DNA of 15,950 nucleotides, taken from the IMG/VR virus record IMGVR_UViG_2657245448_000017; one strand, given 5' to 3'. The notes beneath the pieces were generated by a model, which was given only the letters and a program-made list of their open reading frames with translations, ran no database searches and was not told the origin of the DNA. Numbering within the stretch: the stretch's first letter is position 1; each line of letters opens with the position of its first letter. Source of the stretch: a virus. Its lineage: Duplodnaviria; Heunggongvirae; Uroviricota; Caudoviricetes. Positions 2,453 to 10,928 of this stretch are shown piece after piece. The position numbers and the translations under genes are program-made.

Positions 2453-3132
2453 GCGACCTGCCCCCTGGCAATGTGTTCTGCCCACAGTCCACCAATCCAG
2501 CGCACGCCTTTCGCAGTGAAACGTGCCTGGCTGAATGCATGATTTGAGGTTACGGATGTGCCGGTTTTCACTTCAAAACGGCCCGCATCAATATGCTGAT
2601 ACCGTGGGGTCATCGTTCCACCAAGGCGATACATGATGTCGTTCTCAAGGAGGAATAACCGCAGATCTGGCTCTTTTGCCTTAAGCAGTTTTGCCACCTG
2701 GCGGAATGACATTGACCCACTGGCTGTACAGTACCGATCAACAAACGCTACCTTCGGCGCCGCGGCAGCCAGTTCGTTAGTCAACTGCTGTTTTTGTTCT
2801 GCAAGGTCAGCGGCAAGACGTAGGGCTTCAGAGAATGATTGAGGAATCGTCTGCTGCTGTGCCTGCTCAAGCTCCTGCCAGCGATCAACCAGACGCGCGG
2901 TAAACTCCGGCGACAGCTGCGCGACAACGATATAACTGTCCCGCTTCCCTATCAGATAAACCGATACCGACTGATTGAGGTGATTTTTAACTTCCCCCAT
3001 TGGGGGGAGTTCAATAACACCGCGCTCTGCCAGGCGTTCAATGGACCGTTTAACATGGTCATGTCGTGATTCCACCAGCTCAGCAATATCGCTGCTGGAC
3101 ATGGTTAATGCTGTTGTTGCTAATTGGCTCAT
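2449..3132 (-). CDS. Rha-family regulator / antirepressor with KilA-C (ANT-like) C-terminal domain
   Basis: N-terminal MSQLATTALTMSSSDIAELVESRHDHVKRSIERL resembles the Rha domain; C-terminal half resembles KilAC antirepressor domains. Start chosen at ATG 3132 with GGAG six nt upstream; the track start at 3171 lacks an SD. Confidence 0.7.
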   Translation of the reverse strand: MSQLATTALTMSSSDIAELVESRHDHVKRSIERLAERGVIELPPMGEVKNHLNQSVSVYLIGKRDSYIVVAQLSPEFTARLVDRWQELEQAQQQTIPQSFSEALRLAADLAEQKQQLTNELAAAAPKVAFVDRYCTASGSMSFRQVAKLLKAKEPDLRLFLLENDIMYRLGGTMTPRYQHIDAGRFEVKTGTSVTSNHAFSQARFTAKGVRWIGGLWAEHIARGQVA

Positions 3133-3145
3133 ACTTTTCTCCATA

Positions 3146-3532
3146 TCAGGCGGCCGCACCCGCCGGTTCATATCTGCTGATCGTTATCTCTACCCGACCT
3201 TTCGGCACTACGGGTCCCCATTCCACCAGCATGCGCTTAATCTGGCTGTCATCTTCCCAGACACCCGCATGCGTCAGCGCGTCAAACAGGGCTTTGTTGT
3301 AATTATCGATATCCCGGCGGCGCGCATCCGGCGGGTACAGAGTGATTTCTACCGCAGCCAGTTCAGTCGATGGCTTCGGGAGACGTCGTAATTGCTCAAT
3401 GATCGCCACGCAGGCAGCGCTCTGGTATTTACGGCCTTCAGCGCTAATGAGGTGACGACCAGCCAGCGCCCCCTTGTTAGGAGCGCGCCAGTAAGTGTTC
3501 ACGCTGGGTGGAAATGGGAGTATGAGCCTCAT
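3146..3532 (-). CDS. rusA: Holliday junction resolvase RusA
   Basis: 128 aa with the N-terminal PPSVNTYW motif and RRRDIDNYNKALFDALT acidic catalytic region typical of RusA. GGAGG SD six nt upstream of the ATG. Confidence 0.9.
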   Translation of the reverse strand: MRLILPFPPSVNTYWRAPNKGALAGRHLISAEGRKYQSAACVAIIEQLRRLPKPSTELAAVEITLYPPDARRRDIDNYNKALFDALTHAGVWEDDSQIKRMLVEWGPVVPKGRVEITISRYEPAGAAA

Positions 3533-3646
3533 TAAAAGCCTCCGTCATAATTCCTGAAACATACCTCAACTTTCCCGCTATAGTGACGAACACGTTGAAC
3601 AACATCCGAAATAGGCGCTATACCGGCAGGGCGATAAAAGACTGTT

Positions 3647-6239: not shown

Positions 6240-6788
6240 TTATTTCTCCATACTCGAAGAGTTGTTCGCCAAGGCGCCCGGAGCTGCACACTCGCGGGCG
6301 TCACTCTTTTCTGGAAGGCAGTAAACACGGGCAATCAAATTCAGAAAGGTCATCAGAGTTACCCTGAACTGATATGCAATGTCGTTAAGGCTCTGCCACT
6401 CACCCTTATCAACAACCCCATCGTCGATATACCAACGGTAAGCGTTGACCAGTTCTCCTAGACGCCCCACCAGCTCGGCCAGCTTTAAGCCAATTTCTTC
6501 GTTTTCGTCATCTGGCACCGCACCCGGAACGTGTATCCCGTTATCTGTTTGACGAGAAAACGCATCAGCTATGTAGCTGACACCGGCGGCTTTCTGTAAC
6601 ACCATCGCCCATCCCATAGGGAAGATCTGATCCCCGTCGACGCGAAGGCGGTTAAACAATGCGTTCTCTGTCACCCCCAACCATTCCGCCGCTTCGGCGT
6701 AGCCACCAGGCAGATCGGTAATCGTTTTTTTAATCGCTACCACCAGCCAGGCTGGCTGACGTTCGACTTTCCATTGCGGTTCGTTCAT
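6240..6788 (-). CDS. Putative CII-like lysogeny regulator (CP76-type) with N-terminal helix-turn-helix
   Basis: HTH-like segment GGYAEAAEWLGVTENALFNRLR and loose resemblance to phage 186 CII-type proteins. Start chosen at ATG 6788 with GGAG eight nt upstream; the track start at 6875 lacks an SD. Confidence 0.45.
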   Translation of the reverse strand: MNEPQWKVERQPAWLVVAIKKTITDLPGGYAEAAEWLGVTENALFNRLRVDGDQIFPMGWAMVLQKAAGVSYIADAFSRQTDNGIHVPGAVPDDENEEIGLKLAELVGRLGELVNAYRWYIDDGVVDKGEWQSLNDIAYQFRVTLMTFLNLIARVYCLPEKSDARECAAPGALANNSSSMEK

Positions 6789-6873
6789 TACTGCAACTCC
6801 ATTATTGGCGCCGAACTTCCTGACGGTGATAGCCTGCAAGCTCTCACACCAACAGAACCGAAGGAGGTTCGAC

Positions 6874-7110
6874 ATGTCTGTAAATTCACTGCCTTACGGC
6901 AAGTCTCCCGAAGAAGCCGCTCACGATCTGGCCATGAATCTTGTCTTGTCTGGTCACTTCAAAACATTCCAGAAGTCGCCAGAAGAGGTTTTTCAGTTGA
7001 TCACCAATGCAGAACTGGTCTTCAGTGAGCTTTACCGAAACAAACTGAAGGAAATAGAGTCCGCCAGATCAAAAGAAACCGAAGAGCAATATCAACGTAC
7101 GCAGTGCTAG
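6874..7110 (+). CDS. Hypothetical 78-aa protein encoded antisense to the early-right operon
   Basis: Near-consensus SD AAGGAGG (6861-6867) six nt before ATG 6874. Protein-like sequence MSVNSLPYGKSPEEAAHDLAMNLVLSGHF.... Its stop codon overlaps the stop of the convergent gene 7107..7352. Confidence 0.45.
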   Translation: MSVNSLPYGKSPEEAAHDLAMNLVLSGHFKTFQKSPEEVFQLITNAELVFSELYRNKLKEIESARSKETEEQYQRTQC

Positions 7111-7381: not shown

Positions 7382-7624
7382 TTAAGCTGCTGAATCTGCA
7401 GACTTTTGGAAAACATCAGGACGCAGTCTTTCTTTTGGGATGCCAGTAACGCTCTCAATGTACTGAGATTGCTTTATTGGCGACCTTTTTTCTCTGTTGA
7501 GCCAGTTCCATACCTGTTGTTGTTTAACTTCCTTCCCGGAACTTGCAGTTAGTTTCCGGGCTAACTCAGACTGGCCACCAGCAGTTTCAATTGCCTCTGA
7601 AAGGGCTAACTGCTCAGGTGTCAT
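7382..7624 (-). CDS. cro: Cro-like HTH regulator (YdaS/Cro family)
   Basis: 80 aa from ATG 7624 with AGGAG seven nt upstream. Motif ETAGGQSELARKL...QQQVWNWL resembles Cro/YdaS-type HTH proteins. Divergent from the CI-like gene across an operator-rich spacer. Confidence 0.7.
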   Translation of the reverse strand: MTPEQLALSEAIETAGGQSELARKLTASSGKEVKQQQVWNWLNREKRSPIKQSQYIESVTGIPKERLRPDVFQKSADSAA

Positions 7625-7761
7625 AGTTTTTCTCCTGTGGTTTGAGGTAAAAGTTGTTGGCACCATTGATCATACAACCTAAACAACTTTTACCACAACT
7701 TTTAGGTGTTGGAAAGCTAAAACATAAAGTTGTAATCTCTCCTAATACAGGGGGTAAAGTT
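7625..7761. promoter_or_regulatory. OR-like divergent promoter/operator region between cro and cI
   Basis: Five perfect copies of AAAGTTGT or its reverse complement (7650-7657, 7683-7690, 7696-7703, 7726-7733, 7756-7763). Candidate PR -10 TATGAT on the minus strand at 7668-7673. Confidence 0.6.
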
Positions 7762-8448
7762 GTGAATACACTTGCGGAACGACTAAAAATAGCTAGAGAG
7801 AAGAAAGGCATGAGCCAGGCTCAGTTAGCCGAGCTAATAGGCCTGTCTCAACAATCTGTGGCGAAAATTGAAAATGGAGATACGCTTCAACCTAGAAAGA
7901 TCAAAGATATTGCGAAAGCTTTAGATGTATCCCAAAAATGGCTACAGCTCGGAATTGAGGAGAATGGCTCTATTTCTGATTTTGTAGTTGAGGAACTTGA
8001 AGAAGCAAAACTTGATCCTGAAGTATTTGCCAACATACCCGTTCTCGATGTTGAGTTCTCTGCTGGCAATGGATGTGAAGCCGAAATTGTGGAATCAGTT
8101 GTTGATTCGTTCCCTCTTCGTCGTTTCGATCTTAGAAAAGCTGGAGTCAGTCCTGCTAACGCAAGAATCGTAAAGATTTGGGGCAACAGCCTTTTGCCAG
8201 TATTGAATAATGGGGATCATGTCGCGATTGACATGTCACAGTCGAAACCTATCAGAGATGGTGATTTATACGCTGTTAGAGATGGAGTTTTACTTCGAGT
8301 TAAAGTTCTTATCAATCAACCAGATGGTGGTTTGATACTGCGGAGTTTCAACAAAGAAGAGTACCCGGATGAAGTACTCAACTTTGATGAAAGAAGAGCC
8401 AGAATACACGTTATTGGTCGCGTGTTCTGGTCTTCACGTTCATGGTAG
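7762..8448 (+). CDS. cI: CI-like prophage repressor (N-terminal HTH, C-terminal LexA/S24-type autocleavage domain)
   Basis: HTH QAQLAELIGLSQQSVAKIENG. C-terminal domain with Ala-Gly site (FSAGNG), Ser in GNSLLP and Lys in LLRVKVL, alignable to lambda CI. Start chosen at GTG 7762 after GGGGG (7750-7754), giving 228 aa; the upstream TTG at 7654 lies in the operator region. Confidence 0.85.
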   Translation: MNTLAERLKIAREKKGMSQAQLAELIGLSQQSVAKIENGDTLQPRKIKDIAKALDVSQKWLQLGIEENGSISDFVVEELEEAKLDPEVFANIPVLDVEFSAGNGCEAEIVESVVDSFPLRRFDLRKAGVSPANARIVKIWGNSLLPVLNNGDHVAIDMSQSKPIRDGDLYAVRDGVLLRVKVLINQPDGGLILRSFNKEEYPDEVLNFDERRARIHVIGRVFWSSRSW

Positions 8449-9321
8449 AGCGTGAAAAAGCATTTCTTCTGAAATGATTTTTAACTTAGCCCCTTCATCA
8501 TCTCTATATGAGACTGCTTTTTCTATTTTCCTTCCGTGACTGGAGAACTTCCAGTCACGCGAGGAAAGAGTACCAATTACGAGAAAATCAATTCTCTTTG
8601 TGATTCCGCTGGAAATCAGTCCATTATTCTTTTTAATTAGGTCTTCAACATGTGCTCTCTTTCCTGCCAAAAAAACACCCGTTAAGCAAAATGTTTTATT
8701 TTCAACAGAAACTTCAGCAGTATTATCTAATGGTAATTTAGTAGAAAGCCCATCTACGACGCCGCTTGCAAGGTCACAACCAGTAAAATCTACCAGCGCC
8801 TTGTGTAGATTTTCACTTTCTTCAGTGGTGATGATCCCATCGCTCAGAATCTCTTTTACTAAAGCGTATAGTTCCTTTCCTGGATAATTACTTTTTAGCG
8901 CCCCGTTCTGTGTTAACCACCAGTCCAGGTATCTCACTTCTTCTTCACTTAAGGTTCGATCTGATATTAAACCCTTGCAAAGACCATTCAACAGATGCAG
9001 ATCTGACTCACTGGAGAATAAATCCACATCGGGTATATCGAGTATTTGTCTTTGTATATCATTAAGATGCAGTTTTAATTCACCACGCTCATCATCAGAA
9101 ACAACACCATCGGCCAGTATTTTAGAAACCCTAACACTTAGACTCTTGATAACACCATTTCTAATGGTTTGGTTGGCTTCAAGTAGCCAAGTATCAAGAT
9201 ATAGCACCTCTTCATCCCGCACATGTCCATCGGCAAGAATCCCATCAATAATGCTGATTAAATTTGCAAAAAGCTTATTTCTATTTTGTGTGTAGTTAAA
9301 AACGTAGAGCTTGTCTTCCAT
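8440..9321 (-). CDS. Tandem TerB-like repeat protein with C-terminal BRCT domain (uncharacterised)
   Basis: 293 aa from ATG 9321 with AAGGAGG four nt upstream. Four copies of an (I/L)L(A/S)DGxxx(D/E)EExxxL motif resembling the paired motifs of TerB domains. C-terminal 80 aa (KTFCLTGVF...IDFLVIGT...) aligns by eye to the LigA BRCT domain. Convergent with cI, overlapping it by 9 bp. Confidence 0.7.
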   Translation of the reverse strand: MEDKLYVFNYTQNRNKLFANLISIIDGILADGHVRDEEVLYLDTWLLEANQTIRNGVIKSLSVRVSKILADGVVSDDERGELKLHLNDIQRQILDIPDVDLFSSESDLHLLNGLCKGLISDRTLSEEEVRYLDWWLTQNGALKSNYPGKELYALVKEILSDGIITTEESENLHKALVDFTGCDLASGVVDGLSTKLPLDNTAEVSVENKTFCLTGVFLAGKRAHVEDLIKKNNGLISSGITKRIDFLVIGTLSSRDWKFSSHGRKIEKAVSYRDDEGAKLKIISEEMLFHALP

Positions 9322-9557
9322 ACAGCCTCCTTTTTTGAACATCCTTACATTCAGACGCCCCACAATCAAACCACATAAAGTTGTTGACATAACCATTATT
9401 CACAACTAAATTACACCTTAAAGTTGTTATTACGATTTACAACATTACAACTAGCCATAAGCAACAGCGAACAGGCAGGACGCCCACGAAGTAGCCGCCG
9501 GTGGCGTATGAATAACCGGATGATTCGCTCAATAAAGTTAGGTAGGGGAATTTCACG
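9322..9557. promoter_or_regulatory. OL/PL-like operator-promoter region
   Basis: Plus-strand promoter with -35 TTGACA (9384-9389), 17-bp spacer and -10 TAAATT (9407-9412). Operator 8-mer AAAGTTGT at 9377-9384 and 9420-9427, plus partial copies at 9402-9410 and 9447-9452. Confidence 0.55.
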
Positions 9558-9770
9558 ATGAATGCAGCACAACGCCGAAGGGCTTATCACAAACACCCGA
9601 AAGTTGGGGACACTGTAATTTTACGAGGCATTCCTCGCCTAGTACTGGGTCCGTGTACGTTCAACAGCCTTACTGGCGAAGAGCGTAGCAAACCTTCGGT
9701 AAGCCGTGTCAGGGTTCAAATGACTGGCGGCTCAACAGCTGCACCACTCGTACGTAATTTAAAGTTTTAG
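9558..9770 (+). CDS. Putative N-like antiterminator with N-terminal arginine-rich motif
   Basis: 70 aa. N-terminus MNAAQRRRAYHK parallels the lambda N ARM (MDAQTRRRERRAEK). First gene downstream of the PL-like promoter. Confidence 0.45.
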   Translation: MNAAQRRRAYHKHPKVGDTVILRGIPRLVLGPCTFNSLTGEERSKPSVSRVRVQMTGGSTAAPLVRNLKF

Positions 9771-10070
9771 CGATAAACAGGTGTCTTCGGGAGGGGTTAC
9801 GGGCTGGAGTGACTACCAGCATCGACAGCTCTATCCGACGAAACGGAACCGTCTAACCCGCGGTTGTCGGTGAAAAGTACCGTAGGGATGCCAGCTAGTC
9901 ACTGGCCCCCGCCCGAAGATACCTACCACCGCGCCTGATGTGGTTAAAAGCAGGCCAAAGCAATAACAAGTACTTCCCTGTTCTGGCGGCCCGGTGTTTT
10001 CCCACTTGTCCGGTCACCGCCAGCCTTTTTCAGGGCACAACGACGAGAGCATTGACGAGCAAGGCATAAG

Positions 10071-10150
10071 TGCTGGTTCGATTCCAGACAGTCCCATTCT
10101 GTTGGGAGGGTTGGGCAGGGAAAAGGTTCGTTCGATTCGAACACCGGCAG
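10071..10150 (+). other. tRNA-like element (T-arm plus acceptor stem), non-canonical, inside an ORF-poor island
   Basis: Perfect T-arm GTTCG-TTCGATT-CGAAC (10126-10142). A 7-bp acceptor pairing TGCTGGT (10071-10077) with ACCGGCA (10143-10149) includes one G-U pair. D-stem-like pairing is present, but the anticodon arm is non-canonical (6-nt loop) and there is no encoded CCA. Confidence 0.25.
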
Positions 10151-10556
10151 TGCTCTCTTCGTTGTGGTGAATGCGCAGGCTGATGCGCTAAACCGTGAGG
10201 GAGTGTCCCGAAAGGGTGCGTCACTGGTAATCAACCCATGCCGGAATATCGTAGTACCGGCCACCACAACCAAATCACGCTTAGGACCGTGATAACCGTA
10301 GTTCCAGTATTGCTGTGTGTAGTCTTGGCGGTACCAGGGTCTTCAACCTTATGCAAGGGGGACGAAGATAATGTTCTACCTCGGTACCGCCCTTTTTACG
10401 CAACAGAAAAGGGCATCACCGGGCGACGGGCTCATAACCCAATCCACCCTGGCAAAAGACAGCGGTCTCTGCAAGCCGCCGACCAATGCAGGTGTCCTTC
10501 TCTGTTGTGTATGGAGAAAACACGGCGGTGGAAGCCGCCTTAACGAGGGTAAAACC

Positions 10557-10928
10557 ATGAGTAATGACCGCATGACCGTAGTGCCAGATTTTCTTGGCGA
10601 ACTGGATGCCGGCGTGTTCATGAACAAAATCGCGGCAGCACTTAATACCACCGCGCTTGGCGTTCTGAACAATGGCAACAAAGGCAAAGTAGTCCTCACC
10701 TTTGATTTTGAGCGTATGGGTAATTCCGTTGAAGAGAAGCGCGTGAAGATCAAGCACAAGCTGAACTACAGCACCCCGACACCGCGTGGTAAAGCCTCCG
10801 AAGAGGACACAACCGAAACCCCTATGTGGGTTAACAAAGGCGGGAAGCTCACCATCCTGCAGGAAGACCAGGGCAACTTGTTTACCCTCGGCGGGGATCC
10901 GGACGGAAAGTTACGCGCGGCGAAATAA
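10557..10928 (+). CDS. Hypothetical early-left protein (possibly YfdP-like)
   Basis: 123 aa from ATG 10557 with GAGGG seven nt upstream; the longer track ORF (10371) begins inside the ORF-poor island. Family assignment is tentative. Confidence 0.55.
   Translation: MSNDRMTVVPDFLGELDAGVFMNKIAAALNTTALGVLNNGNKGKVVLTFDFERMGNSVEEKRVKIKHKLNYSTPTPRGKASEEDTTETPMWVNKGGKLTILQEDQGNLFTLGGDPDGKLRAAK

Follow-up and report, generated by a model that had tools for sequence, protein, structure and literature searches.

The window analysed here is a 15,950-nt stretch of tailed-phage DNA (IMG/VR record IMGVR_UViG_2657245448_000017) which, from its open reading frame (ORF) list, a promoter scan and Pfam and PHROG matches, is the immunity and early-left region of a lambdoid, ST64B-like prophage. 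Positions 9771-10556, hereafter the island, encode no protein; in the early-left (PL) transcript they form a structured region of several domains, each closed by a stem, that follow one another on the transcribed strand. Within it lies module C, for which covariation establishes the predicted fold: a conserved four-way-junction RNA with two T-arms, a variable hairpin and invariant junction strands. This RNA family is described in no database. We think it probable that the island is a structured part of the PL leader from which module C is released to act in trans as a tRNA mimic.

Structured RNAs of phages, tRNAs apart, are few, and a function is known for only a minority of them. Here a covarying family with two canonical T-arms in one junction sits where lambdoid phages keep early host-takeover and anti-defence functions; its carriers are found among E. 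coli, Stx2 phages, Salmonella, Klebsiella, Citrobacter, Edwardsiella and plant-associated Enterobacterales.

Fold and covariation of module C

Homologues were collected by an exact-pattern scan of IMG/VR, with patterns lying inside the module, which returned at least 120 stretches holding at least 115 module copies in 65 distinct versions; the structure alignments take in these 65 sequences. Standard pairs fill 95.7% of the alignment cells, compared with 39-54% when the partners are slid, and 16 of the 33 pairs change on both sides (seven in the closing stem P1, three in P2, five in P3 and one in P4), all four helices carrying compensatory pairs. None of 500 shuffles reached any of five pairing measures, and single-sequence folding gives z-scores of -4.1 (module) and -3.3 (whole island). 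P2 and P4 each have the make-up of a canonical T-arm, a 5-bp stem with a closing pair of the G53:C61 type and a loop that reads UUCRAUY in every one of the 65 sequences. With R1, our covariance model of the module, plus-strand scores are 131-163 bits and minus-strand scores 15-33 bits, and the non-Watson-Crick pairs comprise 132 G-U against 17 A-C; because of these strand scores and the G-U excess, we take the selected molecule to be RNA made from the PL strand.

Two ideas about tertiary or catalytic structure were rejected. Kissing between the two UUCGAUU loops is excluded because purine 57 varies independently in the P2 and P4 loops, all four G/A combinations being seen. A hammerhead-like reading of CUGACGAG...GAAA fails since its YUG is paired in P1 and no hammerhead model matches.

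The original prediction for this DNA, made from the letters of the window, had pointed to two T-loop motifs, and both are there: GGTTCGATTC exactly at 10075-10084, and CGTTCGATTC with one mismatch at 10129-10138. Their number alone proves nothing, because 43 of 200 shuffles also reach two or more matches; significance comes from conservation. The T-arm that it placed at 10126-10142 is borne out, being conserved, with a 5-bp stem, the loop UUCGAUU and a compensatory change from C-G to U-A. The 7-bp acceptor helix that it set around this arm (10071-10077 with 10143-10149) can be drawn here but shows no compensatory change in the homologues; 84% of its cells are paired, and its outer pairs are broken in 21-39 of the 65 sequences. 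It also uses the 5′ strand of P2, a rival T-arm (10072-10076 with 10084-10088) in which three pairs have changed on both sides, and on this comparison we judge the specific cloverleaf wrong. Another of its suggestions, a tRNA-like module of a larger structured RNA, fits well: comparison with related prophages finds the stems conserved and covarying in a 131-nt RNA with two T-arms, itself part of a multi-domain leader.

Coding potential and database searches

The island contains short ORFs only, as had been noted, and its end at 10556 is exact because the ATG of the yfdP-like gene follows at 10557. None of its ORFs matches Pfam. Its sole PHROG match, phrog_36251, covers only residues 40-80 of a minus-strand ORF (9944-10273), and the matching region is the reverse translation of the conserved module C itself. 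No open frame is kept across the 65 module C homologues and there is no codon periodicity, variability at the three codon positions being 0.40, 0.50 and 0.45 bits; module lengths of 131-139 nt are not multiples of three, and indels shift the frame. Because Pfam matches, periodicity and an open frame are all lacking and indels shift the frame, the stretch 9771-10556 reads as neither a protein-coding gene nor a pseudogene.

The claim that the island is shifted in GC content was overstated. It does differ from what lies upstream, but its GC fraction (0.52-0.56) equals that of the 70-aa 'N-like' ORF before it (0.53) and of yfdP after it (0.51-0.54); the sole compositional outlier nearby is the AT-rich immunity region at 8250-9450 (0.36-0.43).

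In one related phage locus (L004; loci are cited by our L numbers), annotated 'hypothetical proteins' at 1893-2309 (118970sal3_00050) and 2495-3028 lie over module C or are yfdP extended upstream through the DicF-like terminator described below. These proteins and PHROG 36251 are very likely spurious ORF calls on structured RNA; more generally, several database hypothetical proteins over the region, and one PHROG family, are probably spurious ORFs.

ARAGORN calls no tRNA and no tmRNA gene in the window. No Rfam 15 family reaches its gathering score in the window, and Rfam searches of the window, of the module and of 20 related loci give no match for module C; with E raised to 10, searches of a 151-nt stretch and of 1351 nt give no family, only T-arm fragments and a weak DicF match. 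The fragments are a 16-nt match to tRNA-Sec (E=8) and a 9-bit, T-arm-only match to cyano_tmRNA (E=10). Module C is accordingly rejected both as a tRNA (no ARAGORN call, no Rfam tRNA at gathering score) and as a tmRNA. The motif is not described in the literature searched, a search that does not cover the unnamed candidates of a 10,006-candidate phage RNA survey (PMC10690425).

Distribution and genomic context

Fifteen GenBank phage records carry module C, as do at least 78 of 5,426 complete E. coli genomes searched by megablast, with one copy each and never annotated. A pattern scan followed by R1 finds it in seven GTDB species representatives, all Enterobacterales, of the genera Brenneria, Rouxiella, Ewingella, Erwinia, Izhakiella, Edwardsiella and Symbiopectobacterium; two of the nine genome-scan matches, in a Halobacteroidaceae and a Patescibacteria metagenome-assembled genome, failed R1 and are chance. 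A metagenome scan with the loose pattern GACGAGCAAGGN{6,16}GGTTC returned at least 120 stretches, and none of the 80 loci searched matched R1. The IMG/VR, GTDB and metagenome scans thus confirmed no module C outside Enterobacterales. One IMG/VR contig, IMGVR_UViG_2657245521_000005 (L028 10036-10170), has a module C identical to that of the window at nearly the same coordinates and is probably the same prophage.

BLAST searches of the phage and E. coli collections never cover the island whole, only in blocks (Table 1). Block C is about 92% identical across very different phages: Stx2a_1447, Edwardsiella EPP-1, Salmonella 118970_sal3, Klebsiella Kp4866-6, Citrobacter phiNP and the epsilon15-like Salmonella phages SPN1S and SPN9TCW. 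In all lambdoid relatives 340-1075 nt separate the repressor from the first PL gene, yfdP or rdgC, and no credible gene lies between. Among 119 loci, 79-91 have a LexA-type repressor about 1.4 kb upstream of module C, with cro and cII beyond; about 0.34 kb downstream lies a yfdP-like gene in 58 loci and rdgC in 22. The conserved neighbours are cI, cro, cII, yfdP, yfdQ and rdgC, and all copies have the same orientation relative to transcription.

The epsilon15-like arrangement is of another kind. In SPN9TCW module C belongs to a small unit between the terminase and portal genes, reading against both, which comprises in order a promoter-like region containing TTGACA, a 5′ domain also present in Stx2a_1447, module C, a tRNA-Arg(UCU), a small hairpin and a DicF-like hairpin with a U-run. 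The tRNA-Arg(UCU) is genuine and begins 3 nt inside the 3′ strand of P1. In L022, L024, L126 and L064, no spacer separates module C from the tRNA-like units, 124-126 nt long, beside it. They pass the Rfam tRNA model at 40-46 bits, above threshold, and ARAGORN does not call them; at the place of the anticodon loop they have a loop of 4-6 nt (tetraloop or hexaloop), and they carry an insertion of about 55 nt. These units mimic tRNAs rather than decode.

In several phage types module C or the first cassette comes after another conserved 5′ domain (…CCGGAAUGUGCAAGYCARUG…GUGGCGAUNCGGUKUGAC…) that has a boxB-like hairpin (loop GAAGAGA or GAAAGA) behind it (L001 1380-1496, L002 about 1400-1500, and upstream of the first cassette in L022 and L024); the window lacks this domain.

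A family of stem-closed cassettes

Comparison of the loci shows module C to be one of at least about 10 putative 'cargo' interiors held in cassettes with a common long stem, CACAAC-N-G..AAGAGCAYUG / CAGUGCUCUU..C-N-GUUGUG (the CAAC...GUUG type). The same loci hold further units with nearly the same stem and unrelated interiors of 24-110 nt, one of them with a single T-arm, and a simple stem scan gives the figure of at least about 10 interior types. Cassettes are arrayed with tRNA-like units, the genuine tRNA-Arg(UCU) and terminator-ended units resembling small RNAs (sRNAs); domain D of the window is also of the CAAC...GUUG type. In E. coli Nissle-type prophages, that of Nissle 1917 included, and in L003 and L009, module B is joined directly to domain D. 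Because the junction in L003 and L009 lies exactly in CACAAC, cassettes seem to come and go by recombination at these conserved ends of the stem, and to be exchanged between phages there.

The ydfC-dicB region of the Qin prophage (L140 3043-3609, which is E. coli K-12 MG1655 1649042-1649608) has the same layout as the island. Its cassette scores 18.5 bits with R1, from the stem only, and its X′ domain is 82% identical to the sequence after module C in L018. The 53-nt DicF of this locus arises by early termination and RNase E, and a 72-nt form by RNase III acting on read-through RNA (PMC9438474). The 72-nt form ends about 19 nt past the terminator and therefore inside the Qin long stem, so the stem domain at 3443-3594 probably holds the published RNase III site. 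The K-12 prophage CPS-53, home of yfdP, was rejected as a model, the structured leader being absent; the 357 nt upstream of its yfdP (L262, 2473247-2473603) contain GATTTTGACGGGTCAGA-type repeats instead.

Proposed mechanism and its strength

In the reading that we favour, PL transcripts would stop at two internal terminators, those of module B and of the DicF-like unit, unless antitermination bypasses them. Read-through RNA would be cut in the long stems by RNase III, by analogy with the stem after dicF in Qin; the long stems of the island and of Qin have 18-21 bp with one internal mismatch. RNase P may also cut where a tRNA abuts the cassette. These cuts would free module C, a stable RNA of some 100-130 nt, whose two T-arms would mimic tRNA elbows, each probably with a GG of the conserved junctions as its cap. 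Acting in trans, it would target a factor, of host or phage, able to recognise the T-arm or elbow of tRNAs; it might be a decoy for a tRNA-targeting nuclease, for instance, or bind TruB, TrmA or RNase P. A role in trans is proposed because module C precedes different genes, forms its own unit in epsilon15-like phages and behaves as a member of tRNA arrays.

Several points weigh against this. Every step beyond a conserved, structured plus-strand RNA is one that we infer. Most loci place module C in a 5′ leader directly upstream of genes, where a cis role fits equally, and no partner gene is consistently linked to it in the 119 loci. In Qin the only published RNase III cut is that after dicF (PMC9438474). 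The homologues are all fairly close (74-100% identity), the effective sequence number of R1 is only 1.19, and the shuffle statistics may be inflated by such relatedness; the exact search patterns, lying inside the module, impose part of the invariance seen in P4, J4/1 and J3/4. More robust evidence comes from sliding the partners, from the strand asymmetry and from compensatory pairs of many independent types.

A wider version is offered tentatively, as a possibility that we would not bet on: that these loci form an unrecognised system of exchangeable RNA cassettes in the early transcripts of temperate enterobacterial phages, Qin included, in which a scaffold of about 19 bp and RNase III type releases the cargos. 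Module C would be its double-elbow tRNA mimic, an anti-defence or host-takeover decoy against readers of the T-arm or elbow such as tRNA-targeting immunity nucleases and enzymes of the RNase P and TruB type.

Alternative explanations

The main rival is a purely cis-acting leader, which we hold to be possible though rather unlikely: the domains, module C among them, would control the PL transcript itself and no functional RNA would be released. They might shield untranslated RNA from Rho and RNases, provide RNase III cuts that uncouple or stabilise the yfdP or rdgC mRNA, or form a switch between termination and read-through. The position of module C between the repressor gene and the first PL gene in 79-91 of the 119 loci suits such a role, as do the two intrinsic-terminator-like hairpins within the island, the placing of domain D directly on the ribosome-binding region of yfdP or rdgC, the mutually exclusive pairings of P1 and the domain X stem, and the homologous Qin stem, an RNase III site in an operon mRNA. 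It accounts less well for a module that stands before different genes, occupies its own small terminator-ended unit beside a tRNA in epsilon15-like phages and is missing from otherwise identical leaders (L003, L009), and two T-arms with invariant junctions exceed the needs of a spacer or insulator.

Much less probable is an RNA like the bacterial Y RNA YrlA, its long stem binding a Ro60/Rsr-type or other ring protein and its tRNA-like domain tethering another enzyme. To our knowledge E. coli hosts usually lack rsr, and there is no TROVE/Ro60 gene in the complete SPN9TCW annotation or among the conserved neighbours of module C. YrlA is itself a tRNA mimic rather than a tRNA, with a long terminal stem and a multi-helix junction (PMC4201824), and the order of elements is alike as far as the 'AS' hairpin: a long stem, an unpaired 'V' region, a T-arm and the variable 'AS' hairpin, after which come a second conserved hairpin and the stem again (PMC4201824). 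The conserved stem of module C has an internal mismatch, and GACGAGC in J1/2 resembles the GNCGAA(N)G of YrlA. Against this, the D-arm position holds a second T-arm rather than a D-arm; the motif GNCGAA(N0-1)G is absent, the closest sequence, the near-invariant UGACGAGCAAGG, reading GACGAGC; and Rfam gives no match at E up to 10, the presence of YrlA among the 4227 models being unconfirmed. The resemblance is architectural only.

Still more improbable is an element selected as DNA, with terminal inverted repeats like those of miniature inverted-repeat transposable elements or with attC-like sites, the cassettes being mobile DNA. The same inverted ends of about 19 bp do flank different interiors, inserted or deleted precisely at CACAAC/GTTGTG, and cassette ends loosely resemble the inverse-core and core sites of integrons. 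Yet the internal helices P2-P4 covary independently of the ends, G-U pairs prevail by 132 to 17 on the transcribed strand, all copies keep one orientation relative to transcription, and the neighbour survey links no transposase or integron integrase.

Least credible, and largely refuted, is a relic with no present function, whether degenerate tRNA gene, fossil att site or decayed protein gene, as the original prediction had also allowed: T-arm sequences typical of tRNA genes, the adjoining tRNA and tRNA-like units in related loci, and the GenBank hypothetical proteins and PHROG family over the region might suggest one, but ARAGORN and the Rfam tRNA model find no tRNA, the acceptor helix is unsupported, the junctions are near-invariant while stems change only by compensation (the opposite of decay), the pairing is G-U-specific and always on the transcribed strand, the copies lie far from integrase genes in unrelated phage types and contexts, protein similarity and codon periodicity are missing, and indels shift the frame.

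Other domains and setting of the island

The coordinates of all features are collected in Table 1.

Table 1. Features of the window and of related loci (positions are those of the window unless a locus is named)
Feature	Position	Strand	Remarks
cII-like gene	6240-6875	minus	
YdaS/cro-like gene	7382-7666	minus	
cI-type repressor gene	7654-8448	plus	helix-turn-helix and S24 peptidase domains
318-aa BRCT-domain ORF	8440-9396	minus	AT-rich
PL-type sigma-70 promoter	9384-9412	plus	TTGACA, 17 nt, TAAATT; 10/12 consensus matches; upstream of N-like ORF and island
BLAST block, leader	9464-9548		
70-aa ORF ('N-like')	9558-9770	plus	Arg-rich N-terminus; homologues in 6 loci
Domain 1	9779-9924	plus	18-bp closing stem, 9779-9796 with 9907-9924; inverted repeat
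Domain 1, first hairpin	9803-9820		loop AGUGACUA (9808-9815)
Domain 1, second hairpin	9890-9906		loop UAGUCA(CU), UAGUCACU (9896-9903)
Module B	9924-10031	plus	sRNA-like: 5′ hairpin, A/U-rich single strand CAAAGCAAUAACAAGUACUUCCCUGUU, terminator-like hairpin, U5
Module B, terminator-like hairpin	9983-9989 with 10017-10023		U5 at 10026-10030; read from sequence
BLAST block B	9924-10042		
BLAST block C	10031-10192		
Module C	10036-10166	plus	131-nt four-way-junction RNA; 65-sequence alignment, covariance model, folding
P1	10036-10054 with 10148-10166		closing stem, 18 bp; conserved C10044/U10158 mismatch
J1/2	10055-10071		holds near-invariant UGACGAGCAAGG
P2	10072-10076 with 10084-10088		T-arm, loop UUCGAUU
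P3	10092-10096 with 10103-10107		hairpin, variable in sequence and length
J3/4	10108-10125		contains UGGGCAGGGAAAAG; UGGGCA and GAAA invariant
P4	10126-10130 with 10138-10142		T-arm, loop UUCGAUU
J4/1			ACCGG, between P4 and P1
Domain X	10161-10273	plus	closed by GUUGUGGUG (10161-10169) with CACCACAAC (10262-10270); inverted repeat
Small conserved hairpin	10274-10293	plus	AUCACG-CUUAGGAC-CGUGAU; also after tRNA-Arg in SPN9TCW
DicF-like unit	10310-10397	plus	seed-like 5′ part UUGCUGUGUGUAGUCUUGGCGG, terminator stem, U5; conserved in 41 loci
DicF-like terminator	10327-10335 with 10383-10391		9 bp, G+C-rich; U5 at 10393-10397
BLAST block D	~10390 to yfdP start		
Domain D	10397-10511	plus	~19-bp CAAC...GUUG-type closing stem, 10397-10415 with 10493-10511
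Hairpin	10524-10539	plus	GGCGG-UGGAAG-CCGCC
Shine-Dalgarno-like GAGGG	10545-10549	plus	
yfdP-like gene	ATG 10557	plus	RefSeq homologues begin at equivalent ATG
tRNA-like unit	L022 1800-1925		
tRNA-like unit	L024 1116-1241		
tRNA-like unit	L064 6637-6760		
tRNA-like unit	L126 1408-1533		
Qin P1-type CAAC...GUUG cassette	L140 3172-3259 (MG1655 1649171-1649258)		R1 18.5 bits, stem only; unannotated
Qin X′ domain			82% identical to sequence after module C in L018
Qin dicF	L140 3383-3435		
Qin 21-bp stem	L140 3443-3594		closes ~110-nt domain before dicB; unannotated

The two hairpin loops of domain 1 are complementary, and an alignment of five sequences shows compensatory changes in both hairpin stems and a loop pairing that covaries from GACUA/UAGUC to GACCA/UGGUC; the loops are a candidate kissing pair. 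Module B is 88-100% conserved in 26 loci and 79-92% in E. coli prophages. Domain X has three internal hairpins and a tRNA-like outline without a T-loop, and at its position other loci have the true tRNA-Arg or the 124-126-nt tRNA-like units. RNAalifold on six near-identical sequences shows no covariation in it, the homologues being too alike. Its closing stem has 6 nt in common with the 3′ strand of P1, which makes the pairings of the two stems mutually exclusive.

The DicF-like unit is pairwise similar to K-12 dicF in the 5′ part and the stem. The DicF model RF00039 reaches only 16.6 bits (E=1.4, at 10314-10392) against a gathering score of 48; it has no match in the Stx2a_1447 homologue, nor any at gathering score in 20 related loci. 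By position the unit resembles dicF, as a hairpin with a U-run in an early prophage operon, between structured domains and in synteny with Qin. Domain D has a conserved core CACCGGGCGACGGGCUCAUAACCCAAUCCACCC, a variable hairpin and four pairs in which both sides have changed. The terminator U-run directly precedes it, the ribosome-binding region of yfdP directly follows, and it ends 46 nt before the yfdP ATG. A 10-codon ORF, MEKTRRWKPP* (10511-10543), has its start within UAUGGAGAAA, a strongly conserved sequence right behind domain D, and stops 13 nt before that ATG. In L022 its AUG is in frame with yfdP, and because of this it is probably not a conserved peptide.

The original prediction had placed the island in the PL transcript, and the gene order and promoter around 9771-10556 bear this out, the island lying between a PL-type promoter with the 70-aa ORF and the yfdP-like gene. 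The promoter is a strong one by its predicted elements and should drive both the 70-aa ORF and the island; the leader block behind it is conserved and common to other prophages. The 70-aa ORF matches no Pfam and no PHROG family, and its label 'N-like' is a guess. Beyond the yfdP-like gene follow yfdQ/DUF2303 and a YfbR-like nucleotidase.

The 318-aa ORF, with 0.36-0.41 GC, is inserted on the opposite strand between the cI repressor gene and the PL promoter. Its BRCT domain is C-terminal (Pfam E=1.4e-5), it also matches phrog_3989, of unknown function, and 15 other loci have a related ORF of 306 aa there. This is where lambdoid phages keep morons for exclusion and defence, rex and sieB among them.

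Comparison with known systems

Like a tRNA, module C has T-arm hairpins with a 5-bp stem, G:C closure and a 7-nt UUCRAUY loop, two of them, and it adjoins real tRNA genes and shares ends with them; unlike a tRNA, it has no acceptor stem, D-arm, anticodon arm or CCA. RNAs C and D of phage T4 are stable, about 120-140 nt long and without a known function; they are transcribed and processed together with tRNAs, which they partly resemble, and have tRNA-like 3′ ends bearing CCA. They share with module C a phage origin, a similar size and the company of tRNAs, but there is no known sequence relationship, and module C is a double T-arm junction on a long stem, carried by temperate phages. With YrlA it has in common a long stem closing a junction that holds a canonical T-arm, then a variable hairpin, then another conserved hairpin; it differs in having a second T-arm for the D-arm, no GNCGAA(N)G and no Ro60 gene nearby.

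ROOL and GOLLD are long, ORF-free structured prophage RNAs, often beside tRNA genes and of unknown function (10.1101/2024.12.08.627333). The island is likewise a long, ORF-free structured RNA region in a prophage, but it has no Rfam match to either and is a mosaic of exchangeable 60-150-nt domains rather than one large fold, confined to Enterobacterales.

The closest known system is the ydfC-dicF-dicB region of Qin. Like the island it belongs to an early operon downstream of the immunity genes, and it has the same order of a long-stem cassette, an X-type domain, an sRNA with hairpin and U-run, and a long-stem domain before the next gene, domain D corresponding in position to the domain that the 21-bp stem closes between dicF and dicB. 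The Qin cassette differs in its interior, of 45 nt and with no T-arms, and in the window the DicF-like unit has another seed, its terminator loop measuring 47 nt (51 by the Rfam stem definition, against 23 in the model). The 35-year-old dicF locus of K-12 may be reread as one example among modular arrays of stem-closed RNA cassettes, and it offers a tractable laboratory model for the others.

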